A stretch of 64,000 nucleotides of DNA from positions 64,001 through 128,000 of the IMG/VR virus record IMGVR_UViG_3300011008_000004; one strand, 5' to 3'. The stretch comes from a virus (Duplodnaviria; Caudoviricetes). How positions within the stretch are numbered: the first letter of the stretch is position 1; every line of letters starts with the position of its first letter. This document shows, piece by piece, positions 5,642 through 48,076 of this stretch. The position numbers and the translations under genes were made by a program. The notes under the pieces were generated by a model. The model saw only the letters and a program-made list of their open reading frames with translations, made no database searches and was not told the DNA's origin.

Positions 5642-6934
5642 TTAATCTTTTTTAATCAATTCATATCTTTCAAAGTTGTTAACTAAATCTTTTGCTTTAA
5701 TTTCTACTTTGTCACCAGATACATTATCAACTACAAGAAGCACATGTTCAGGAGTAACTTCTAAAACACTACCATCTTCTGATTCTATCTTAATTAAATT
5801 AGGATACTCATTGTCTTTTATAAGTACACCAGTGATATCAGAATATTCTATCATATCTTTTTCAATATTATATGACATTGTTTCATAATCACTATAATCT
5901 TTACTGTGATTTATACAGAAAGTGCTAATTGGCATAGTAATAATTTTTAAAGATGTCTTATGTCTGATCGTTATCAACTCATTTCCCTTAAAACAACAGC
6001 TAGCTAATGCATCAGCTGAATCTGAATTATATAAAAAGAATGAATGACCTTTGGACCACATTTCAGCAGTGAAATCAGCCATTTCTTCATCTACATATTT
6101 ATGTGTATCTTTGTCCCATAGCAAATTCATTGTCTCAACAGGAAATGTGATAACATCATGGGTTCTTTCATTATTAAACCAATTCATAAACATTTTCTGT
6201 AATTCTTTTGTAGATTCCCAATTAGGTTCATCACCATCTGGGAATATAAAATCTTTAAATATTGAATTAAAATATCCCTTATCAAAATAAGCAATATTAG
6301 TAAATGGTGATTGATAACCTCTAGCGCCTGCAGGTTGATTTATACAGTAAACAAATTGTTGAAATAAATCTTCAATTTTATTTCTTAAAGTAGCTCTTCT
6401 ATTGCCAAAAGCTTCTACAGTTTCATCTAAATTTGTTATATAATCTTCACCGTAATCTACTCTTAAAAAGTGATCTAAATAAGGTAAAAATTCTGGAACA
6501 GCGACAGCCCCTGCAAATTGACCTGCTATTAAAAATACTAAATTTGTTAAACCACCTATAAATGAATCTGAATGTTTAGGCGGGCCACTTGTTCCGCCTA
6601 ACTTCTTTAAGCCATCTAATAAAAATGGATATAATGAAATAGCTACACAATATGGCATAATTGAACTCTCATCATGTGAATATATGATGTGATTTTTTAA
6701 ATCTAAATCAAACTGATCACACAACTCTTGGCCATATTTAATCAATAAATATTTCTTTGTTATAGCACGATTTACGTCTATAAAATCAGGCTTAGATAAT
6801 TCTGAAGACATTGTTGCTACATTCTTAGTAGTTACATTAGCATTAGCATCTACTTCAGAACCGGATGCAGCGTTACACGCTTGTTTATAATTCTCAATAA
6901 ATTTAAGTTTCTTATTTAAAGTCCTTTCATCCAT
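5642..6934 (-). CDS. nrdD: NrdD N-terminal half fused to split-intein N fragment (117 aa, from 5995)
   Basis: NAASGSEVDANANV, YSHDE, PYCVAIS, GARGYQSPFTN; ends ALASC/CFKGNE (block A) ...VTPEH (block B), then TAA. Confidence 0.93.
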   Translation of the reverse strand: MDERTLNKKLKFIENYKQACNAASGSEVDANANVTTKNVATMSSELSKPDFIDVNRAITKKYLLIKYGQELCDQFDLDLKNHIIYSHDESSIMPYCVAISLYPFLLDGLKKLGGTSGPPKHSDSFIGGLTNLVFLIAGQFAGAVAVPEFLPYLDHFLRVDYGEDYITNLDETVEAFGNRRATLRNKIEDLFQQFVYCINQPAGARGYQSPFTNIAYFDKGYFNSIFKDFIFPDGDEPNWESTKELQKMFMNWFNNERTHDVITFPVETMNLLWDKDTHKYVDEEMADFTAEMWSKGHSFFLYNSDSADALASCCFKGNELITIRHKTSLKIITMPISTFCINHSKDYSDYETMSYNIEKDMIEYSDITGVLIKDNEYPNLIKIESEDGSVLEVTPEHVLLVVDNVSGDKVEIKAKDLVNNFERYELIKKD

Positions 6935-42020: not shown

Positions 42021-43160
42021 TCAAATCTTATCATCTATAAGAATTTCAGGAATAAGCTGAACTAAACCTTCACCACTATTTATCGCTAAAGCAGGGGTTG
42101 TACCATATGAAACATCTAACGTTTTAGAATTCATAGCTTTTAGTTGTTTCATTAAATCTGAAAATCTAATAATAGATTCATGTTCAAATGCATTTTCACT
42201 CGATATATAAGGAATTCTTTCAAAATTCTTATTCGTTATAGATACGAACTGGACTTCATTCTCCTTAAATACAAGTTTAGAATATAGCATTACTTCTATA
42301 CCAAACTTCTTATCGAAAACCATCAATCTTGCTAATGCTTTATCTACTGCTTTTTTATCTAATATAACATGTGTTACATGAGATACAGATGCTAATTTTC
42401 TTAATCTTATTGATGGATATGTGTCAGTTAATGCTTGACTTTGAATAACTAAAACTAAACTTATATTATTTGCCTTAAATTTAATTTTACTAGCATAATC
42501 ATAATTAGCTGATGAATCAATCATCAACTCAACTTCATCTATACTATTGAATACTTCTAATAGCTTTGCTTGTGTTACATTTAATAATATCTTAAAATCT
42601 TTATTTCCAAGTCTCTTAAATGTATTTACATATAAATTTTCAGTATAAGTTAAAGCACCTTCTTGATCCACATAAATAAATTGCTGAATTTCATTAGAAA
42701 ATACTGAATCTACGAAACCTTTAGTATTTATAGTCGCAACTGAAGACAGATCATTACCACTTAAAATGATATTATCTACTGTGTCTCTAAATTTAATAAC
42801 ATCTACGGATTTTACATCATCTAATTCCTTTATAATTGGAAATGTAAATTCACTGTTAGAAGTTTTAAATATTAAAGCGTTCATTCTCTCAAACATTTCA
42901 ACGTAGTCATCATCTAACTTTGCAACTAATGGGACAAAAGTATCAGATACTATAGTCGCATGAATTTTATCAGAATTATCACACTCAATTGGAATTACTG
43001 CTTCTAAATAATAATCATAGTTAGATACTTTTAATGTCATCGTATTATCTTCAAATGATTCTAATTCTATCCAACCAGACTTAGGATTTAACTTAGTTTT
43101 CTCTATAGCTAAATTCATTTTAGCTACTATATTTTTTAATTCTGTTATGTTAACTTTCAT
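42021..43160 (-). CDS. dnaN: DNA polymerase III beta-like sliding clamp
   Basis: 379 aa, beta-clamp length and pattern, next to polymerase, with clamp loader nearby. Confidence 0.7.
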   Translation of the reverse strand: MKVNITELKNIVAKMNLAIEKTKLNPKSGWIELESFEDNTMTLKVSNYDYYLEAVIPIECDNSDKIHATIVSDTFVPLVAKLDDDYVEMFERMNALIFKTSNSEFTFPIIKELDDVKSVDVIKFRDTVDNIILSGNDLSSVATINTKGFVDSVFSNEIQQFIYVDQEGALTYTENLYVNTFKRLGNKDFKILLNVTQAKLLEVFNSIDEVELMIDSSANYDYASKIKFKANNISLVLVIQSQALTDTYPSIRLRKLASVSHVTHVILDKKAVDKALARLMVFDKKFGIEVMLYSKLVFKENEVQFVSITNKNFERIPYISSENAFEHESIIRFSDLMKQLKAMNSKTLDVSYGTTPALAINSGEGLVQLIPEILIDDKI

Positions 43161-43179
43161 AATTATCTATACAAATTCC

Positions 43180-44055
43180 TTACACTTCGTCTCTTAATAG
43201 ATCATACGTTCCATCACAAAACTTATCTAAAATTTCATCACTAAATTCTTCATGTTCTGCTTTAACTTCTGCTATTGCTTGTTCTCTAGTTTTACCGTCT
43301 TTTTCAATAGCTGTTGAAATATACTCTTGAATTTCATTCAACATTTCATCCGCATACCATCTCTTTAAGATATATGGATCTGTAACAAATGGAACGTCGA
43401 CCTCAGGCTTAGCTGCATTAGACATTAAATAAGCCAATCTTTCAGAAACTTTTTCAGCGTTTTCTACAGGACATTCTCCTAATAATTCATCATGCACAGG
43501 AATTAGTAATTTATAACCAAGATCATTTATTTCTTTATCTTTAAAAATATTAACCATCGCTTTCTTAGTTAAAGATGCTGCACTTCCTTGAATTCTAGCA
43601 TTCGTACATTGTGTCATTGTTTTTGAAATAAATGCGCCATTATCTAAAACGTCAACTCCATTTTCTTTAGCTAATTCTTTAAACTTAGTTTTAGTCTTAA
43701 AACCTTTACCAGCATAGTTAGTATTATATTCATTAGTCCATCTAGCTGTAGCTTCTTTATCTTCAACTTCTAAAAATACATCTTTAGCTTGACAATCTAA
43801 AAACAGATCACAATTAGTACTCACTTTCTTTTTAGCTGTTACTTTAACTTCCGGTAAATTTGCATCAGGTAAGTGTCTACGTCTACCCATATAATCTTCA
43901 ACATAACCTTGTTCTTTAGCAGCTATAGCATTGCCATCTGTAAATTCTTTTATTTTAGGAAACTTTTCATAAAAATTTTTAAGTATTTCTTGGCATTCTT
44001 CATATGAAACCTTTAATTGTTGTGACATAAGATTAGCGCCCATGCCATACATAAT
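43180..44055 (-). CDS. polA: family A DNA polymerase, final exon (motif B end, motif C)
   Basis: IMYGMG, GYVEDYMGRRRHLP, NARIQGSAA, LIPVHDELL. Confidence 0.93.
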   Translation of the reverse strand: MMYGMGANLMSQQLKVSYEECQEILKNFYEKFPKIKEFTDGNAIAAKEQGYVEDYMGRRRHLPDANLPEVKVTAKKKVSTNCDLFLDCQAKDVFLEVEDKEATARWTNEYNTNYAGKGFKTKTKFKELAKENGVDVLDNGAFISKTMTQCTNARIQGSAASLTKKAMVNIFKDKEINDLGYKLLIPVHDELLGECPVENAEKVSERLAYLMSNAAKPEVDVPFVTDPYILKRWYADEMLNEIQEYISTAIEKDGKTREQAIAEVKAEHEEFSDEILDKFCDGTYDLLRDEV

Positions 44056-45245
44056 CGTTTTATTTTAATATTTCTATTAAACCAGACTATCTCATAATCC
44101 TATATTTAGGATTTTACGCACTTCGATTAGTAACAATCTCTAATCTACACACATGTCTGTGTTAGTCGTTACACTTTATCTATGAATTTCCACTTAAAAC
44201 CATAAGCGTGTTTTGCTTTACCTTTACACACAGCTGATATAGCTTTAGCTGATGCTAAGCTAACAGCTATCTTATGTTCAACCAAATATTTAGAAGCCTA
44301 TGTCATAGATTTAAATGTCATTAAAATCTAATTATTTGATCTATCAATCATTGCAACTGATTTACTATTCTTATCTGAAATAATATCTCTAGTATGCTAA
44401 GAATGATGTTTATTAAAGAATGAATTGCGTTCACCCACACGTTGTGAAGCTAATATGCTTAACTTTTCATTCTTTACGCCACTATTCAATCTAGATCTAG
44501 ATCTATTAGTACACTTCTTTAATCCCTTATTAGGCGAAATTCTTCCTTTCAATTTGTTAGATATTTCTAAATTAGATTCATACTAATGATCTAAATTAGC
44601 CTAAAATTGTTTACTACATTCATATGCTTTCTAATATAATTCTAAATCAATATCATCTATATTAAAATCTTGTAAAGACTTACCATGTAATATATAGCGT
44701 ATAGATAAAATATTTTTAGATATATCATCATTAGATTTACTACATAATGCTAAAAAATAATGTGATTTTATATGATCTTTATATAATAAATTCACTAAAT
44801 TATTTTCAGAATTGTCTACATCTAAATTATTAGATATGAAATAATATTTGGGAATTATGTGATGCTAGTTATGTCTATAAGATTCATAATTAGTATCAAT
44901 GTTACTAATAATTAAATTTACATATTCATTTAAGTATTCATTATCAATAAATATATTAGTTTGCAATAATTTGTGTTTTAAGATATCAAAATTTATGTTA
45001 TTCATACACTCTCCTGTATAATTTAGCTAGGTATTGTGTATGTTAACATACATAAATCTTAGCACGGTATTATCTGCTATCCAATCGCTGGACCGTAGAA
45101 TCTCTTACGAAGCTTATTCGCACAAAGTCTTAGTTCACTTCTACCGTTAGCAACTATCACTAGTTACACCTCTTTGTAATCAGAGTTCACGTAATTATTC
45201 GATACACATCACTGTGTAAAGGGGCATTATATAACCTTTCAGTCT
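44056..45245 (-). ncRNA. group I intron in polymerase motif B
   Basis: 5' exon ends GGU, intron ends G; IGS AUAAUGCCC pairs with both exons; R-like GUGUAACGACUA and S-like GAUAGUCU; splicing restores KTLMLG-IMYGMG. Confidence 0.9.
44169..45005 (-). CDS. intron-encoded HNH homing endonuclease with NUMOD3/NUMOD1 (7 TAG)
   Basis: QHHIIP...DNSENNLVNL...H...H; GERNSFFNKHHS; HAYGFKWKF; AGGAG SD; own GCTAAATTA motif. Confidence 0.88.
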
Positions 45246-45511
45246 ACCCAACATTAAAGTTTTACCCTTTTTTCTTAATTGTTTTCCTGCAAAGTTAGGA
45301 GAACCATCTTCCCAATGTTCCATACATTCCCAATAATCTTTATGGACTGCTGGTGCATATATAGTTGCATATGGGTCACGTTTCTCTTCAAATGTTCTTC
45401 TCAATTCTGGATCTTGAGAAAGATGAGTGAATAACCGTGGTTCTTGCGCTGACTTCAGGAAAAGTCTCCTCCCACAATTGAATAATTAATTCGTGTTCTT
45501 AGACTTCTCAT
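45246..45511 (-). CDS. polA: family A DNA polymerase, second cistron first exon (motif A interrupted by 8-nt insert at ~45450-45457)
   Basis: Strong SD AAAGGAGGTGA; MRSLRTRINYSIVGGDFS-TGA-AG-SAQEPRLFTHLSQD...RKKGKTLMLG. Confidence 0.85.
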
Positions 45512-45632
45512 TAGCATCACCTCCTTTAGTACCCTCTTGGCACCATCTAATATTTTAATATCTACAAAATGAATACTCACTTTATAGGTAATTCTACTAA
45601 ATTGTATATATTTTCTTATCTTTCTTTAAATT

Positions 45633-45794
45633 TTATACCTTTTGTTTATACGTAAGCAAAGCTTTTACAGATTCTTCATTATATCTATATTTACCATTTA
45701 TATTAGAATCTATTTTTATCAAACCTTGTTTTACATACTTATACAATGTAGGCTTGCTTATCTTCAACAAATTCATCACTTCTTTTGCTTTCAT
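45633..45794 (-). CDS. 53 aa MerR/HTH_17-type DNA-binding protein (like the IS607 TnpA N-terminus)
   Basis: MKAKEVMNLLKISKPTLYKYVKQGLI; ATG overlaps the polA-N TGA. Confidence 0.75.
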   Translation of the reverse strand: MKAKEVMNLLKISKPTLYKYVKQGLIKIDSNINGKYRYNEESVKALLTYKQKV

Positions 45795-47347
45795 GCTACG
45801 TCCTCTAAGGTTAATTTTATTTTATTTTCTAAAACTTCTACTTTAGTTACCTTATAAAACTCATCATCACTTCCAGTGATAATATCATTTTCTTTTATAT
45901 CTTTTATTCTAACCCATTTATTGTTACACATTACATCTACATAATCATTTAAAATTATTTCATTAGAATCTTCTATATTCTCATCTTTATATTCCGTAGA
46001 TGCTTTAAACATCATTCTCATTGAAGTTTCATGTGAAGGAATCTGTTGTAGATTTGGATTAGTTGAACTAAATCTCCCTGTTCTTACGTTATTATCTTCT
46101 GCACCCATTTGATTAAAGTTAGCATGAAGTTTGCCATCTTTTTCAGAAATACAATTTGGAAGAGATTTAGTAAATGTTTTCATTAAAATACTAAAGTGTC
46201 TATAATCTAATAACGCTTTTGTAAATGGGTGATCTATCGCTTTTAACGCTGCTTTATCAGTAGACTTATTTTCATCTAATGGTTTTATCTTTAATATATC
46301 ATATAAAACTATTTTAAGTTGAACTGGACTTTCATAATTTATTGGATCATCTAATTGTCCTAATGATCTATAACTATCTAACTCTTTCTTATATGGGGCT
46401 AATATTTCATTCATCTTATTAGATGCTTTTTCTAAACCTTTAGTATACTTATCATCTAAACGTTTAACATAATCTACGTCAAGACAAATTCCATCATCTT
46501 CCATTTTAGATGTTACTAAAACTATTGGGACTTCTACTTCACTAAATAACTTGTATAATTTTTCACAGCCCTTCTGCTTAAATAACTCTTCTTGATATTG
46601 TTGTAATTTATAAGTATCAAAAGCATCAATAGCTGCATATAATGCAAATATTTCAGGATCGACCCAAGCATAAGGTAAACCAGTAAATAATTTTTCAATA
46701 TTGTATGAACCAATTGTAGGATCTATATGGGTTTTATATTGAAACTTCAATTTAGCTTGTTCATTTTCATTCATCATTTGAGCTGCTATCATTGTGTCCC
46801 ACCATATTGGAAGATATACACCCATAGTGTTAAAACAAACTCGTATATCAAATTTCCCATTATGATATATCATTTTAGTATTATTATCTTTTAATTTTTG
46901 AAATACTTCCTTTACGCACTCATCTGATACTTGATCTTTTAATCTTTCGTCTGTTCCAGGAACACAGTGATTCATTGGAACATATACTGGTTTTGTATTT
47001 GGAAGATACATACACAAACCCATTAACTTACAAGTTAGTGGATCCAAACTATTATTAGTTTCTGTATCGAATGACAAATAATCTACTGCAATGGCTCTAT
47101 CTATATACTCTCGTAATTCATCATCAGTCCTTATAACCTTAACAAAGTTTTTATATCTTCCTAAAATTTTATAAACTTCTTTTGAGATATAATCGAGTCT
47201 ATCTTCTAGTGGCATACTAGAGATAGACTCTTTCTTTTTAACAGCATGAGTTTTGCCAAGTTTTATAAGTTGAAGACGAATAGCGTCATTATTTATAACA
47301 GGAACTTCAAAATCATCTAGCAATGAAGCTTTTCTAAATTCCGCCAT
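45791..47347 (-). CDS. polA: family A DNA polymerase, first cistron (3'-5' exonuclease, thumb, start of palm) with Hint-like tail
   Basis: FDTET, HNGKFD, YAAID, RTGRFSSTNPNLQQIP, RMMFKAS then ~68 aa KWVRIKDIKENDII tail and TGA. Confidence 0.93.
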   Translation of the reverse strand: MAEFRKASLLDDFEVPVINNDAIRLQLIKLGKTHAVKKKESISSMPLEDRLDYISKEVYKILGRYKNFVKVIRTDDELREYIDRAIAVDYLSFDTETNNSLDPLTCKLMGLCMYLPNTKPVYVPMNHCVPGTDERLKDQVSDECVKEVFQKLKDNNTKMIYHNGKFDIRVCFNTMGVYLPIWWDTMIAAQMMNENEQAKLKFQYKTHIDPTIGSYNIEKLFTGLPYAWVDPEIFALYAAIDAFDTYKLQQYQEELFKQKGCEKLYKLFSEVEVPIVLVTSKMEDDGICLDVDYVKRLDDKYTKGLEKASNKMNEILAPYKKELDSYRSLGQLDDPINYESPVQLKIVLYDILKIKPLDENKSTDKAALKAIDHPFTKALLDYRHFSILMKTFTKSLPNCISEKDGKLHANFNQMGAEDNNVRTGRFSSTNPNLQQIPSHETSMRMMFKASTEYKDENIEDSNEIILNDYVDVMCNNKWVRIKDIKENDIITGSDDEFYKVTKVEVLENKIKLTLEDVA

Positions 47348-47365
47348 ATTGTCTCCTTATATCTA

Positions 47366-48076
47366 TTAAACTTTTCTTGGTTTTATACAAGCATCCATAA
47401 ATGGATCGTCATCATCTACTATTGTAGATTTAACTTCTTCTTTTGGTTGCTCTTCTTGTTTAATAGTTTCTACAAAATCAGAATGACTCGTATTAGCTTT
47501 TACATCATCTTTATTAGATTCTTTTTCAGCCTGTTTCTTTTTTAAGTATTCTTCTTTAGGAATGTAGTTTGAAACATGCTTTGGCATTTCACCAGTCTTT
47601 AAAAACTGTTTAAGCTCATCTACACTTCTTGTAAGATAGAATCTATAAGCTAACTTGTTGTCTATTAAAGATTCGTCTACAGGTGCATAATTTTTAGCAT
47701 TCAAGATATCAACACTATACTTAGGAAACTCTTTACCTTTACGTGTAATTCTAACAACACATTCACTAATATTTCCCCAATCTTTTTCAATTTCTGAAAA
47801 TTGAGTAAGAATCTTATCAGTTCTACACCAAATCTTTTCTTTCTCATCAGCATAATCAAAAAGATGTACGAATATCTTTTTAGCGGGTTGTTTCTCATCA
47901 CTACATATGGGACATCCATCACCTGCACACTTAACCATTTTAGGTTTGCCATTAACTTCTACTTTATGAATCATTACTGATTCAATTGTTTCAACTTTAC
48001 TATGTAATACTCTTACAATAGCTGAATCACCATCGTTGTTTAAGTTGAAAAATTCAATTTGTCTATTCTCTTCCAT
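47366..48076 (-). CDS. phage SSB (gp32-like)
   Basis: FFNLNNDGDSAIVR, C-X4-CPIC, acidic DDDDPF near C-terminus. Confidence 0.72.
   Translation of the reverse strand: MEENRQIEFFNLNNDGDSAIVRVLHSKVETIESVMIHKVEVNGKPKMVKCAGDGCPICSDEKQPAKKIFVHLFDYADEKEKIWCRTDKILTQFSEIEKDWGNISECVVRITRKGKEFPKYSVDILNAKNYAPVDESLIDNKLAYRFYLTRSVDELKQFLKTGEMPKHVSNYIPKEEYLKKKQAEKESNKDDVKANTSHSDFVETIKQEEQPKEEVKSTIVDDDDPFMDACIKPRKV

Follow-up and report, generated by a model that had tools for sequence, protein, structure and literature searches.

Genes divided into two pieces around a homing endonuclease gene are known in two classes. The first comprises the so-called fractured genes, in which the halves of a split intein flank a free-standing endonuclease gene, gp41-1 being an example (Dassa et al., 2009, PMC2677866). 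The second consists of intein-less gene-breaking endonuclease cassettes, among them MobA and MobE. MobA breaks the topoisomerase gene of T4 into genes 39 and 60, adds a C-terminal extension (CTE) to the first product and to the second an N-terminal extension (NTE), re-supplies the target residues that it displaces and carries a bypass, which in gene 60 shields the MobA-bearing DNA from its own endonuclease (bioRxiv 10.1101/2022.08.31.505936). Variants of MobA have been described in which GIY-YIG or VSR genes were swapped in, in which the endonuclease or the bypass was lost, or in which the two pieces were re-fused (bioRxiv 10.1101/2022.08.31.505936). Here an element is described that divides the gene of a family A DNA polymerase (PolA) in a stretch of 64,000 nucleotides of a virus of the Caudoviricetes (positions 64,001 to 128,000 of IMG/VR record IMGVR_UViG_3300011008_000004), called the window in the following. 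The gene is probably split by a mobile cassette of the homing-endonuclease type, with the two halves of the polymerase assembling non-covalently and without splicing. No published description of this PolA element was found in the literature searched.

The closest analogue of the locus is the mobA/gene 39-60 element of T4, and what is seen here is a PolA version of a known arrangement, not a new kind of system. As with MobA (PMC3182709; bioRxiv 10.1101/2022.08.31.505936), a homing endonuclease cassette appears to divide an enzyme that is essential for replication, and to do so at a catalytic metal-binding motif, the first open reading frame (ORF1) receives an in-frame CTE and the second an NTE, and target residues are re-supplied. 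In both systems the restart is soon followed by a non-coding gap, which opens with a stop codon and has matched codons on either side, and nearly identical uninterrupted alleles exist beside endonuclease-swapped, endonuclease-less, gap-less and re-fused variants. The differences are that the host of the PolA cassette is a family A polymerase and that of MobA a Topo II, that the CTE in PolA is recognizably derived from a Hint domain, that the NTE measures 9 residues as compared to about 45 in MobA, that the candidate gap spans 6-12 nucleotides as compared to 50 in gene 60, and that the copy in the window is devoid of an endonuclease gene. Similarly, in Aeh1 nrdA-a/mobE/nrdA-b and in the split gp43 of T4-related phages, as cited in PMC2677866 and bioRxiv 10.1101/2022.08.31.505936, an endonuclease insertion breaks an intein-less gene, and pieces with element-coded terminal extensions form an active enzyme without splicing, as would by analogy be the case for PolA. 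The host enzymes differ, and a Hint relationship of the extensions has not been reported. With the fractured genes (PMC2677866) the locus shares the gene order, an N-terminal fragment ending in a Hint piece, with gp41-1 as the best sequence match in the PDB, and hosts that are replication genes of phage-like sequences. Unlike the fractured genes, the PolA element keeps only about the first 55 Hint residues and has neither a C-intein nor catalytic residues, so that its halves cannot be ligated. How an intein could turn into a cassette of this kind is described by the fractured-gene model (PMC2677866). The locus links inteins and fractured genes with the cassettes of the MobA and MobE kind and, since its extension is still recognizably half an intein, suggests how elements of the first class could give rise to those of the second.

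Architecture of the divided polymerase gene

The record that contains the window is a complete virus genome of 214,257 bp with direct terminal repeats, and all features of the locus lie on the minus strand of the window, to which the coordinates refer. ORF1 (47347-45791) encodes 518 residues. Residues 1-450 (45998-47347) constitute the body of PolA-N with the 3'-5' exonuclease, the thumb and the first palm strand up to RMMFKAS (residues 444-450), as found by tblastn with unsplit homologues and by Pfam, whose matches to DNA_pol_A_exo1 (PF01612) and DNA_pol_A (PF00476) reach residue 452. In unsplit homologues (phiCTP1, Flasso, Dp-1 and more closely related metagenomic sequences, among them L022 with 73% identity) the MF.AS strand is followed by a three-residue turn and then by the motif-A strand, motif A reading D[YF]SQQEPR. 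In the window, 68 residues are instead inserted after KAS. They form the cassette-encoded CTE (residues 451-518; 45794-45997), composed of an acidic linker of about 14 residues and a beta domain of about 54 residues with six predicted strands, and end at a TGA (45791-45793) that overlaps the ATG of the next ORF (ATGA).

The second cistron, PolA-C, starts with ATG at 45511, 8 nucleotides behind the Shine-Dalgarno (SD) sequence AAGGAGG (45520-45526). Its first nine residues, MRSLRTRIN (45485-45511), are encoded by the ATG and eight mostly basic codons and constitute the cassette-encoded NTE, or leader, according to an alignment of 12 loci; SD, start and leader are conserved in 11 related loci. 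The leader runs directly into YSIVGGDFS (45458-45484), which contains the catalytic Asp and corresponds to the strand of motif A in the unsplit homologues; here the palm resumes. This frame stops after 18 codons at TGA (45457-45455), the beginning of a non-coding gap, TGA-AG-TCA (45450-45457), in which TCA is a second Ser codon. PolA-C continues in another frame from AQEPR to LMLG (45246-45449), as recognized by tblastn with homologues. An intervening sequence (44056-45245), the edges of which were set by comparison with homologues, then interrupts motif B, and the last part (43180-44055; Pfam PF00476, tblastn) runs from IMYGMG, with the rest of motif B, through VHDEL in motif C to the stop. 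With the interruptions removed, comparison with the unsplit homologues recovers motifs A, B and C in full, and the locus holds both the exonuclease and the polymerase domain of a family A polymerase (PF01612, PF00476).

A first-pass annotation of this DNA had proposed a polymerase gene in two polypeptides, with PolA-N ending about 68 residues past RMMFKAS and PolA-C restarting from its own strong SD at MRSLRTRIN-YSIVGGDFS. The two cistrons, the length of exactly 68 residues before TGA and the restart are all borne out, and the comparison with unsplit homologues that it had asked for places the insertion point in the turn between the MF.AS and the motif-A strands. PolA-C had been taken for a plain ORF, which it is not, the gap with its change of frame lying just outside the feature as it was then drawn. 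A protein search of a phage collection returned solely unsplit relatives with about 33% identity.

A probable mobile cassette at a fixed site

By scanning viral and metagenomic contigs at least 13 distinct split loci with identical site and anatomy were gathered, each with a tail of 60-80 residues after MF.AS, a stop codon, a strong SD, ATG or TTG, a basic leader of 9-10 residues and the motif-A strand. The cleanest of them, L007 on a 126-kb contig, consists of two cistrons with PolA-C as an uninterrupted frame of 383 codons, and in L004 the stop lies only 13 nucleotides from the restart codon. When a profile built from 14 tails was run against 1.84 billion cluster representatives, 447 protein clusters matched at E<=1e-3, 79 of them at E<=1e-10. 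Of the 150 rows listed, about 130 show a match that ends at the C-terminus of the protein, which identifies these proteins as PolA-N fragments. A word-index protein search with residues 440-518 returned only the window's own protein. The element occurs widely, in hundreds of protein clusters from phages of metagenomes, and standard gene callers list such polymerases as truncated or fragmentary.

How did the split alleles come to be distributed over these phages? In a maximum-likelihood tree of residues 1-450 of 34 polymerases, with the split-trait columns left out, split and unsplit alleles are interleaved. The split state changes nine times on this tree, at least seven of the changes being forced by well-supported branches, which is no fewer than with shuffled labels. 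Two split alleles have close unsplit sisters, L035 paired with L034 (0.08 and 0.09 substitutions per site) and L005 with L022 (0.07 and 0.04), and in both pairs the DNA sequences are about 85-95% identical as far as the MF.A codons, where the identity collapses. Moreover, the slot between the halves is occupied by a GIY-YIG gene in L013 (Pfam, 1e-10), by an HNH homing endonuclease gene in L035 (phrog_655, 7e-17) and by the gene of a large homing endonuclease in L008 (phrog_3339, 8e-66). In L020 and the window it contains small, unrelated ORFs, and it is nearly empty in L004, L005, L007, L015, L021 and L027. Every split allele seen, the endonuclease-less ones included, retains the tail and the basic leader. 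The short contig L072 (protein P0056) has tail, a short linker, leader and motif-A strand in one frame and by its sequence is a secondary fusion. One fixed site with two adjacent cistrons, CTE and NTE in 13 loci, a patchy spread, near-identical uninterrupted alleles and clean identity breaks are what characterizes elements of the MobA/MobE type.

From the interleaved alleles together with the endonuclease genes in the slot we take tail and leader to be the paired extensions of a gene-splitting mobile element, which would be of intein ancestry and not a fixed, domesticated part of the enzyme. The first-pass annotation had interpreted the module as a domesticated remnant. Of that interpretation the two cistrons, the Hint N-lobe tail and the lack of splicing stand, and the domesticated state is not supported in view of at least seven to nine changes of state, near-identical unsplit sisters and homing endonuclease genes in the slot. 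As we picture it, the cassette would sit in the turn of a palm beta-hairpin just before motif A. Its 5' end would be in frame with the host gene and encode the acidic linker and a dead intein N-lobe of about 54 residues followed by the stop; its middle would serve as the slot for a free-standing endonuclease gene; and its 3' end would provide SD, start codon, the basic leader of nine residues and the motif-A strand of PolA-C.

In the window the slot contains a 53-residue ORF (45633-45794) for an HTH_17/excisionase-like protein (Pfam PF12728, E 2.4e-11; PHROGs excisionase families), which through the ATGA overlap is translationally coupled to the end of PolA-N. This ORF is absent from L004, L005 and L007.

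The tail as half a Hint domain

The tail is homologous to the N-terminal lobe of the Hint/intein fold, as judged from sequence profiles and predicted structure. The individual scores are moderate, and the assignment rests on the agreement of several tests, all of which lead to Hint domains and inteins, in line with the earlier description of a beta-rich tail resembling the N-part of a Hint fold. At the level of sequence, the tail profile matched proteins with tandem PT-HINT, Hint and Intein_splicing domains, which were confirmed in these proteins by Pfam, and an intein-bearing SNF2 helicase with E values of 1e-10 to 6e-8. Among the sequences of the PDB the best match was the gp41-1 split intein (E 0.009, residues 9-55), and lower-ranking matches were an intein-like domain of bacterial origin and the KlbA intein. 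Comparison by hhalign with a genuine PolA mini-intein (P0004) aligned residues 23-48 of the tail with residues 3-28 of the intein (E 1e-4, probability 58%). At the level of structure, AlphaFold2 predicted six beta strands for residues 20-75 of the tail with a predicted local distance difference test score (pLDDT) of about 87. The best Foldseek matches of this model were the MchDnaB-1 and gp41-1 inteins (probability 0.97-0.99, E about 0.1). VIA, which is independent of Foldseek, returned inteins as all six best matches, namely Prp8, PI-SceI domain I, MchDnaB-1, gp41-1, PolII and VMA1, with Z scores of 5.3-6.3 and root-mean-square deviations of 1.8-2.6 over 47-56 residues.

In two loci the tail's terminal hairpin is similar to the leader plus motif-A strand of the same locus (L005, 7500-7554 and 7637-7693; L029, 1150-1196 and 1215-1271), and the tail of a further relative, P0005, ends in DFSQ. 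It could be imagined that the target strand was duplicated or transferred by gene conversion into the tail, or the resemblance could be due to chance.

Alternative explanations

Several observations weigh against the interpretation as a mobile cassette with an intein-derived tail and non-covalently joined halves. The window's slot holds the HTH_17 ORF and no endonuclease gene, and the mobility of this copy is therefore deduced from its relatives. The patchy spread could in part be due to repeated precise loss of the cassette by recombination with unsplit alleles instead of repeated gain. Pfam (E<=1) found no Hint family on ORF1, and the fold matches of the tail are moderate with Z scores below 8. 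Furthermore, since the tail folds confidently alone in the model, it may not need a complementing strand.

Could the gene simply be a decaying pseudogene in a phage that uses the polymerase of its host? Three interruptions, one of them a stop and frameshift inside motif A, would fit such a view. However, the ratio of nonsynonymous to synonymous substitution rates (dN/dS) of the polymerase body is 0.08-0.095 (0.08 in comparison with L020), indicating strong purifying selection, the same interruptions recur under conserved rules in many phages, and motifs A, B and C are intact once they are removed. In the complete genome this locus is the only PolA match, and no match to a family B polymerase or to Pol III alpha was found in the whole 214,257 bp. 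As the sole recognizable polymerase of a complete genome and under such selection the gene must work, and decay is hardly credible. An atypical active split intein that ligates the halves by protein trans-splicing would be suggested by the layout of the fractured genes, with a Hint piece, an endonuclease gene between the halves and a restart (PMC2677866), and by the resemblance of the tail to the gp41-1 split intein. The gene order and the endonuclease slot do fit, but the C-intein is missing and the N-piece is truncated and dead. At the position equivalent to Cys1 of inteins the window has Ile465 and the 13 relatives have Ile, Glu, Lys or Thr. The tail is an N-lobe of only about 54 residues that ends before block B and contains no TxxH. 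On the C-terminal side there is a piece of merely nine residues without a conserved Asn, the last residue of the leader being Asn, Lys, Arg, His, Glu or Pro across the relatives, and the residue that follows it (+1) is Tyr, Met or Lys, so that a +1 nucleophile is lacking as well. A splicing-competent intein would have a full Hint fold with blocks A, B, F and G, a nucleophile (Cys or Ser) at position 1 or its class 2/3 substitutes, and His-Asn followed by Cys, Ser or Thr at +1; the PolA module has the N-lobe only and lacks both the nucleophile and the C-terminal junction, which agrees with the original remark that splicing residues are missing. How a working intein looks in this gene family can be seen in L030 and P0004, whose inteins at GRFS/C possess the C1, the TxxH and the HN/C junction. 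As no splicing residue is conserved, splicing at the protein level is excluded for practical purposes, and we consider an active atypical intein extremely improbable.

Equally improbable is removal at the RNA level, whereby the stretch from KAS to YSIVGG would be an intron and the tail nothing but read-through into it. A group I-type intron does appear to lie downstream in the same gene, and relatives have introns at other sites. Against this explanation speak that the tail is a conserved protein domain found in 447 clusters with dN/dS below 1, that a stretch of 13 nucleotides is all that lies between stop and restart in L004, that SD and start codon are conserved, and that a scan of 42500-48000 with Rfam (E<=1) gave no match. 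With splicing of protein and of RNA excluded, and stop and restart only 13 nucleotides apart in L004, non-covalent assembly of the halves remains.

True inteins at GRFS/C, upstream of NLQQIP, were seen in L030 (from 6303 onwards), P0004, P0006, P0020 and P0092, where they come on top of the half-Hint tail in the same polymerase.

How the halves could meet

T4 and Aeh1 offer precedents for a contribution of cassette-encoded extensions to the assembly of a divided enzyme. The CTE of T4 gp39 and the NTE of gp60 constitute a pendant domain of about 70 residues outside of the TOPRIM fold, which was proposed to aid assembly (PMC11461880), and in Aeh1 NrdA the halves still bind each other when the extensions are missing, with activity abolished (as summarised in bioRxiv 10.1101/2022.08.31.505936). 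By analogy with these extensions, tail and leader of PolA may help the halves to dock in the manner of a clasp, a role that we put forward with considerable reservation. A predicted complex of the L007 tail (8-70) and the first 47 residues of its PolA-C scored 0.31 against a mark of 0.32, which argues neither for nor against docking. AlphaFold2 applied to the L029 read-through (translation table 6; tail, leader and motif-A strand) gave a confident tail, and with pLDDT values below 50 for leader and strand it was uninformative on docking.

Alternatively, the native polymerase interface alone may join the halves, and the tail may be a tolerated passenger or may have a job of its own such as binding of DNA or of a replisome protein. 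This alternative is on the whole doubtful. It would be consistent with the predicted autonomous folding of the tail, with the retained binding of the Aeh1 NrdA halves, and with the T4 insertion being located outside the domain and having little influence on activity (PMC11461880). Moreover, the dN/dS of the tail is 0.44-0.46 (0.46 for the CTE of the window), about five times that of the body. A dN/dS below 1 nevertheless represents a weaker but real constraint, tail and basic leader are kept in all split alleles seen, even without an endonuclease gene, and the re-fused form retains both, all of which speaks against a passenger. Should binding be demonstrated, the small self-folding half-Hint domain and its short leader might be turned into a compact device for bringing proteins together.

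A short gap within motif A

The gap in the window follows GGDFS, the Ser of which is encoded by TCC, and consists of TGA, AG and TCA before GCG-CAA-GAA, so that AQEPR is in another frame. A skip of 8 nucleotides from TCC to TCA restores DFS-AQEPR. Gaps at the same codon are found in eight relatives (L004, L005, L008, L013, L020, L021, L029 and L035), with lengths of 6, 6, 6, 7, 9, 9, 11 and 12 nucleotides. In all nine gaps, that of the window included, the stop codon comes first, and in eight of them (seven of the eight relatives and the window) the stop is followed after 0-9 nucleotides by a second Ser codon. Four split loci and all of the 21 unsplit loci are without a gap, which is thus confined to split alleles. 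Plain read-through of the stop codon was rejected as explanation: it would make motif A longer, and three of the nine gaps do not keep the frame, whereas a skip from Ser to Ser gives motif A its exact spacing in all cases. From this regularity of the sequences we infer that PolA-C would be completed by a short ribosomal hop from Ser to Ser over the TGA, and the candidate gap would parallel the bypass in gene 60. With only 8 nucleotides the gap in the window could serve as an uncomplicated natural model in which to investigate short ribosomal hops.

A more far-reaching proposal combines these elements. Tail and leader would be a non-covalent docking module that came from a split intein, and the leader may double as nascent-peptide signal for the hop of 6-12 nucleotides from Ser to Ser inside motif A. 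The locus would then represent a second natural family of programmed bypass, residing on a polymerase-splitting cassette and providing self-immunity against the cassette's own endonuclease. This combined picture is speculative, and we regard it as rather unlikely to hold in full.

Right after the same DFS codon, L072 has the start of a sequence resembling a group I-type intron (386-562), which contains a GIY-YIG ORF. Being located at the position of the gap, it indicates that the DFS site is the target of more than one element.

Further insertions in the gene

The intervening sequence in motif B (45245-44056, 1190 nucleotides) is probably a group I intron. It contains an HNH/NUMOD3 ORF of 278 residues (45005-44169; PHROGs HNH, Pfam NUMOD3) with eight in-frame TAG codons, which is open only if TAG is a sense codon. 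A decayed intron endonuclease was considered and rejected, since the ORF is intact when TAG is read as sense. The window's intervening sequence itself gave no match to Rfam, and at the same site L005 carries an ORF-less intron with a weak match to Rfam Intron_gpI (20 bits, E 0.006). A nucleotide search of the phage collection returned a single match of 43 nucleotides, to Brochothrix phage A9, inside this downstream intron. The matching segment (45195-45237) is at the 5' end of the intron and shares 93% identity with DNA next to the terminase large-subunit gene in phage A9 and its relatives, which suggests a shared intron core. L020, the closest relative with 86% identity, has an additional ORF-less insertion of 275 nucleotides (6294-6568) between STNP and NLQQIP, which the window lacks and which is probably one more group I intron.

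A search of the window for tRNA genes gave none. In the unsplit locus L036 an in-frame TAG (at about 6330) stands exactly at the conserved Gln of NFQNIP, which indicates that in the phage carrying L036 recoding of TAG to Gln reaches the polymerase gene.

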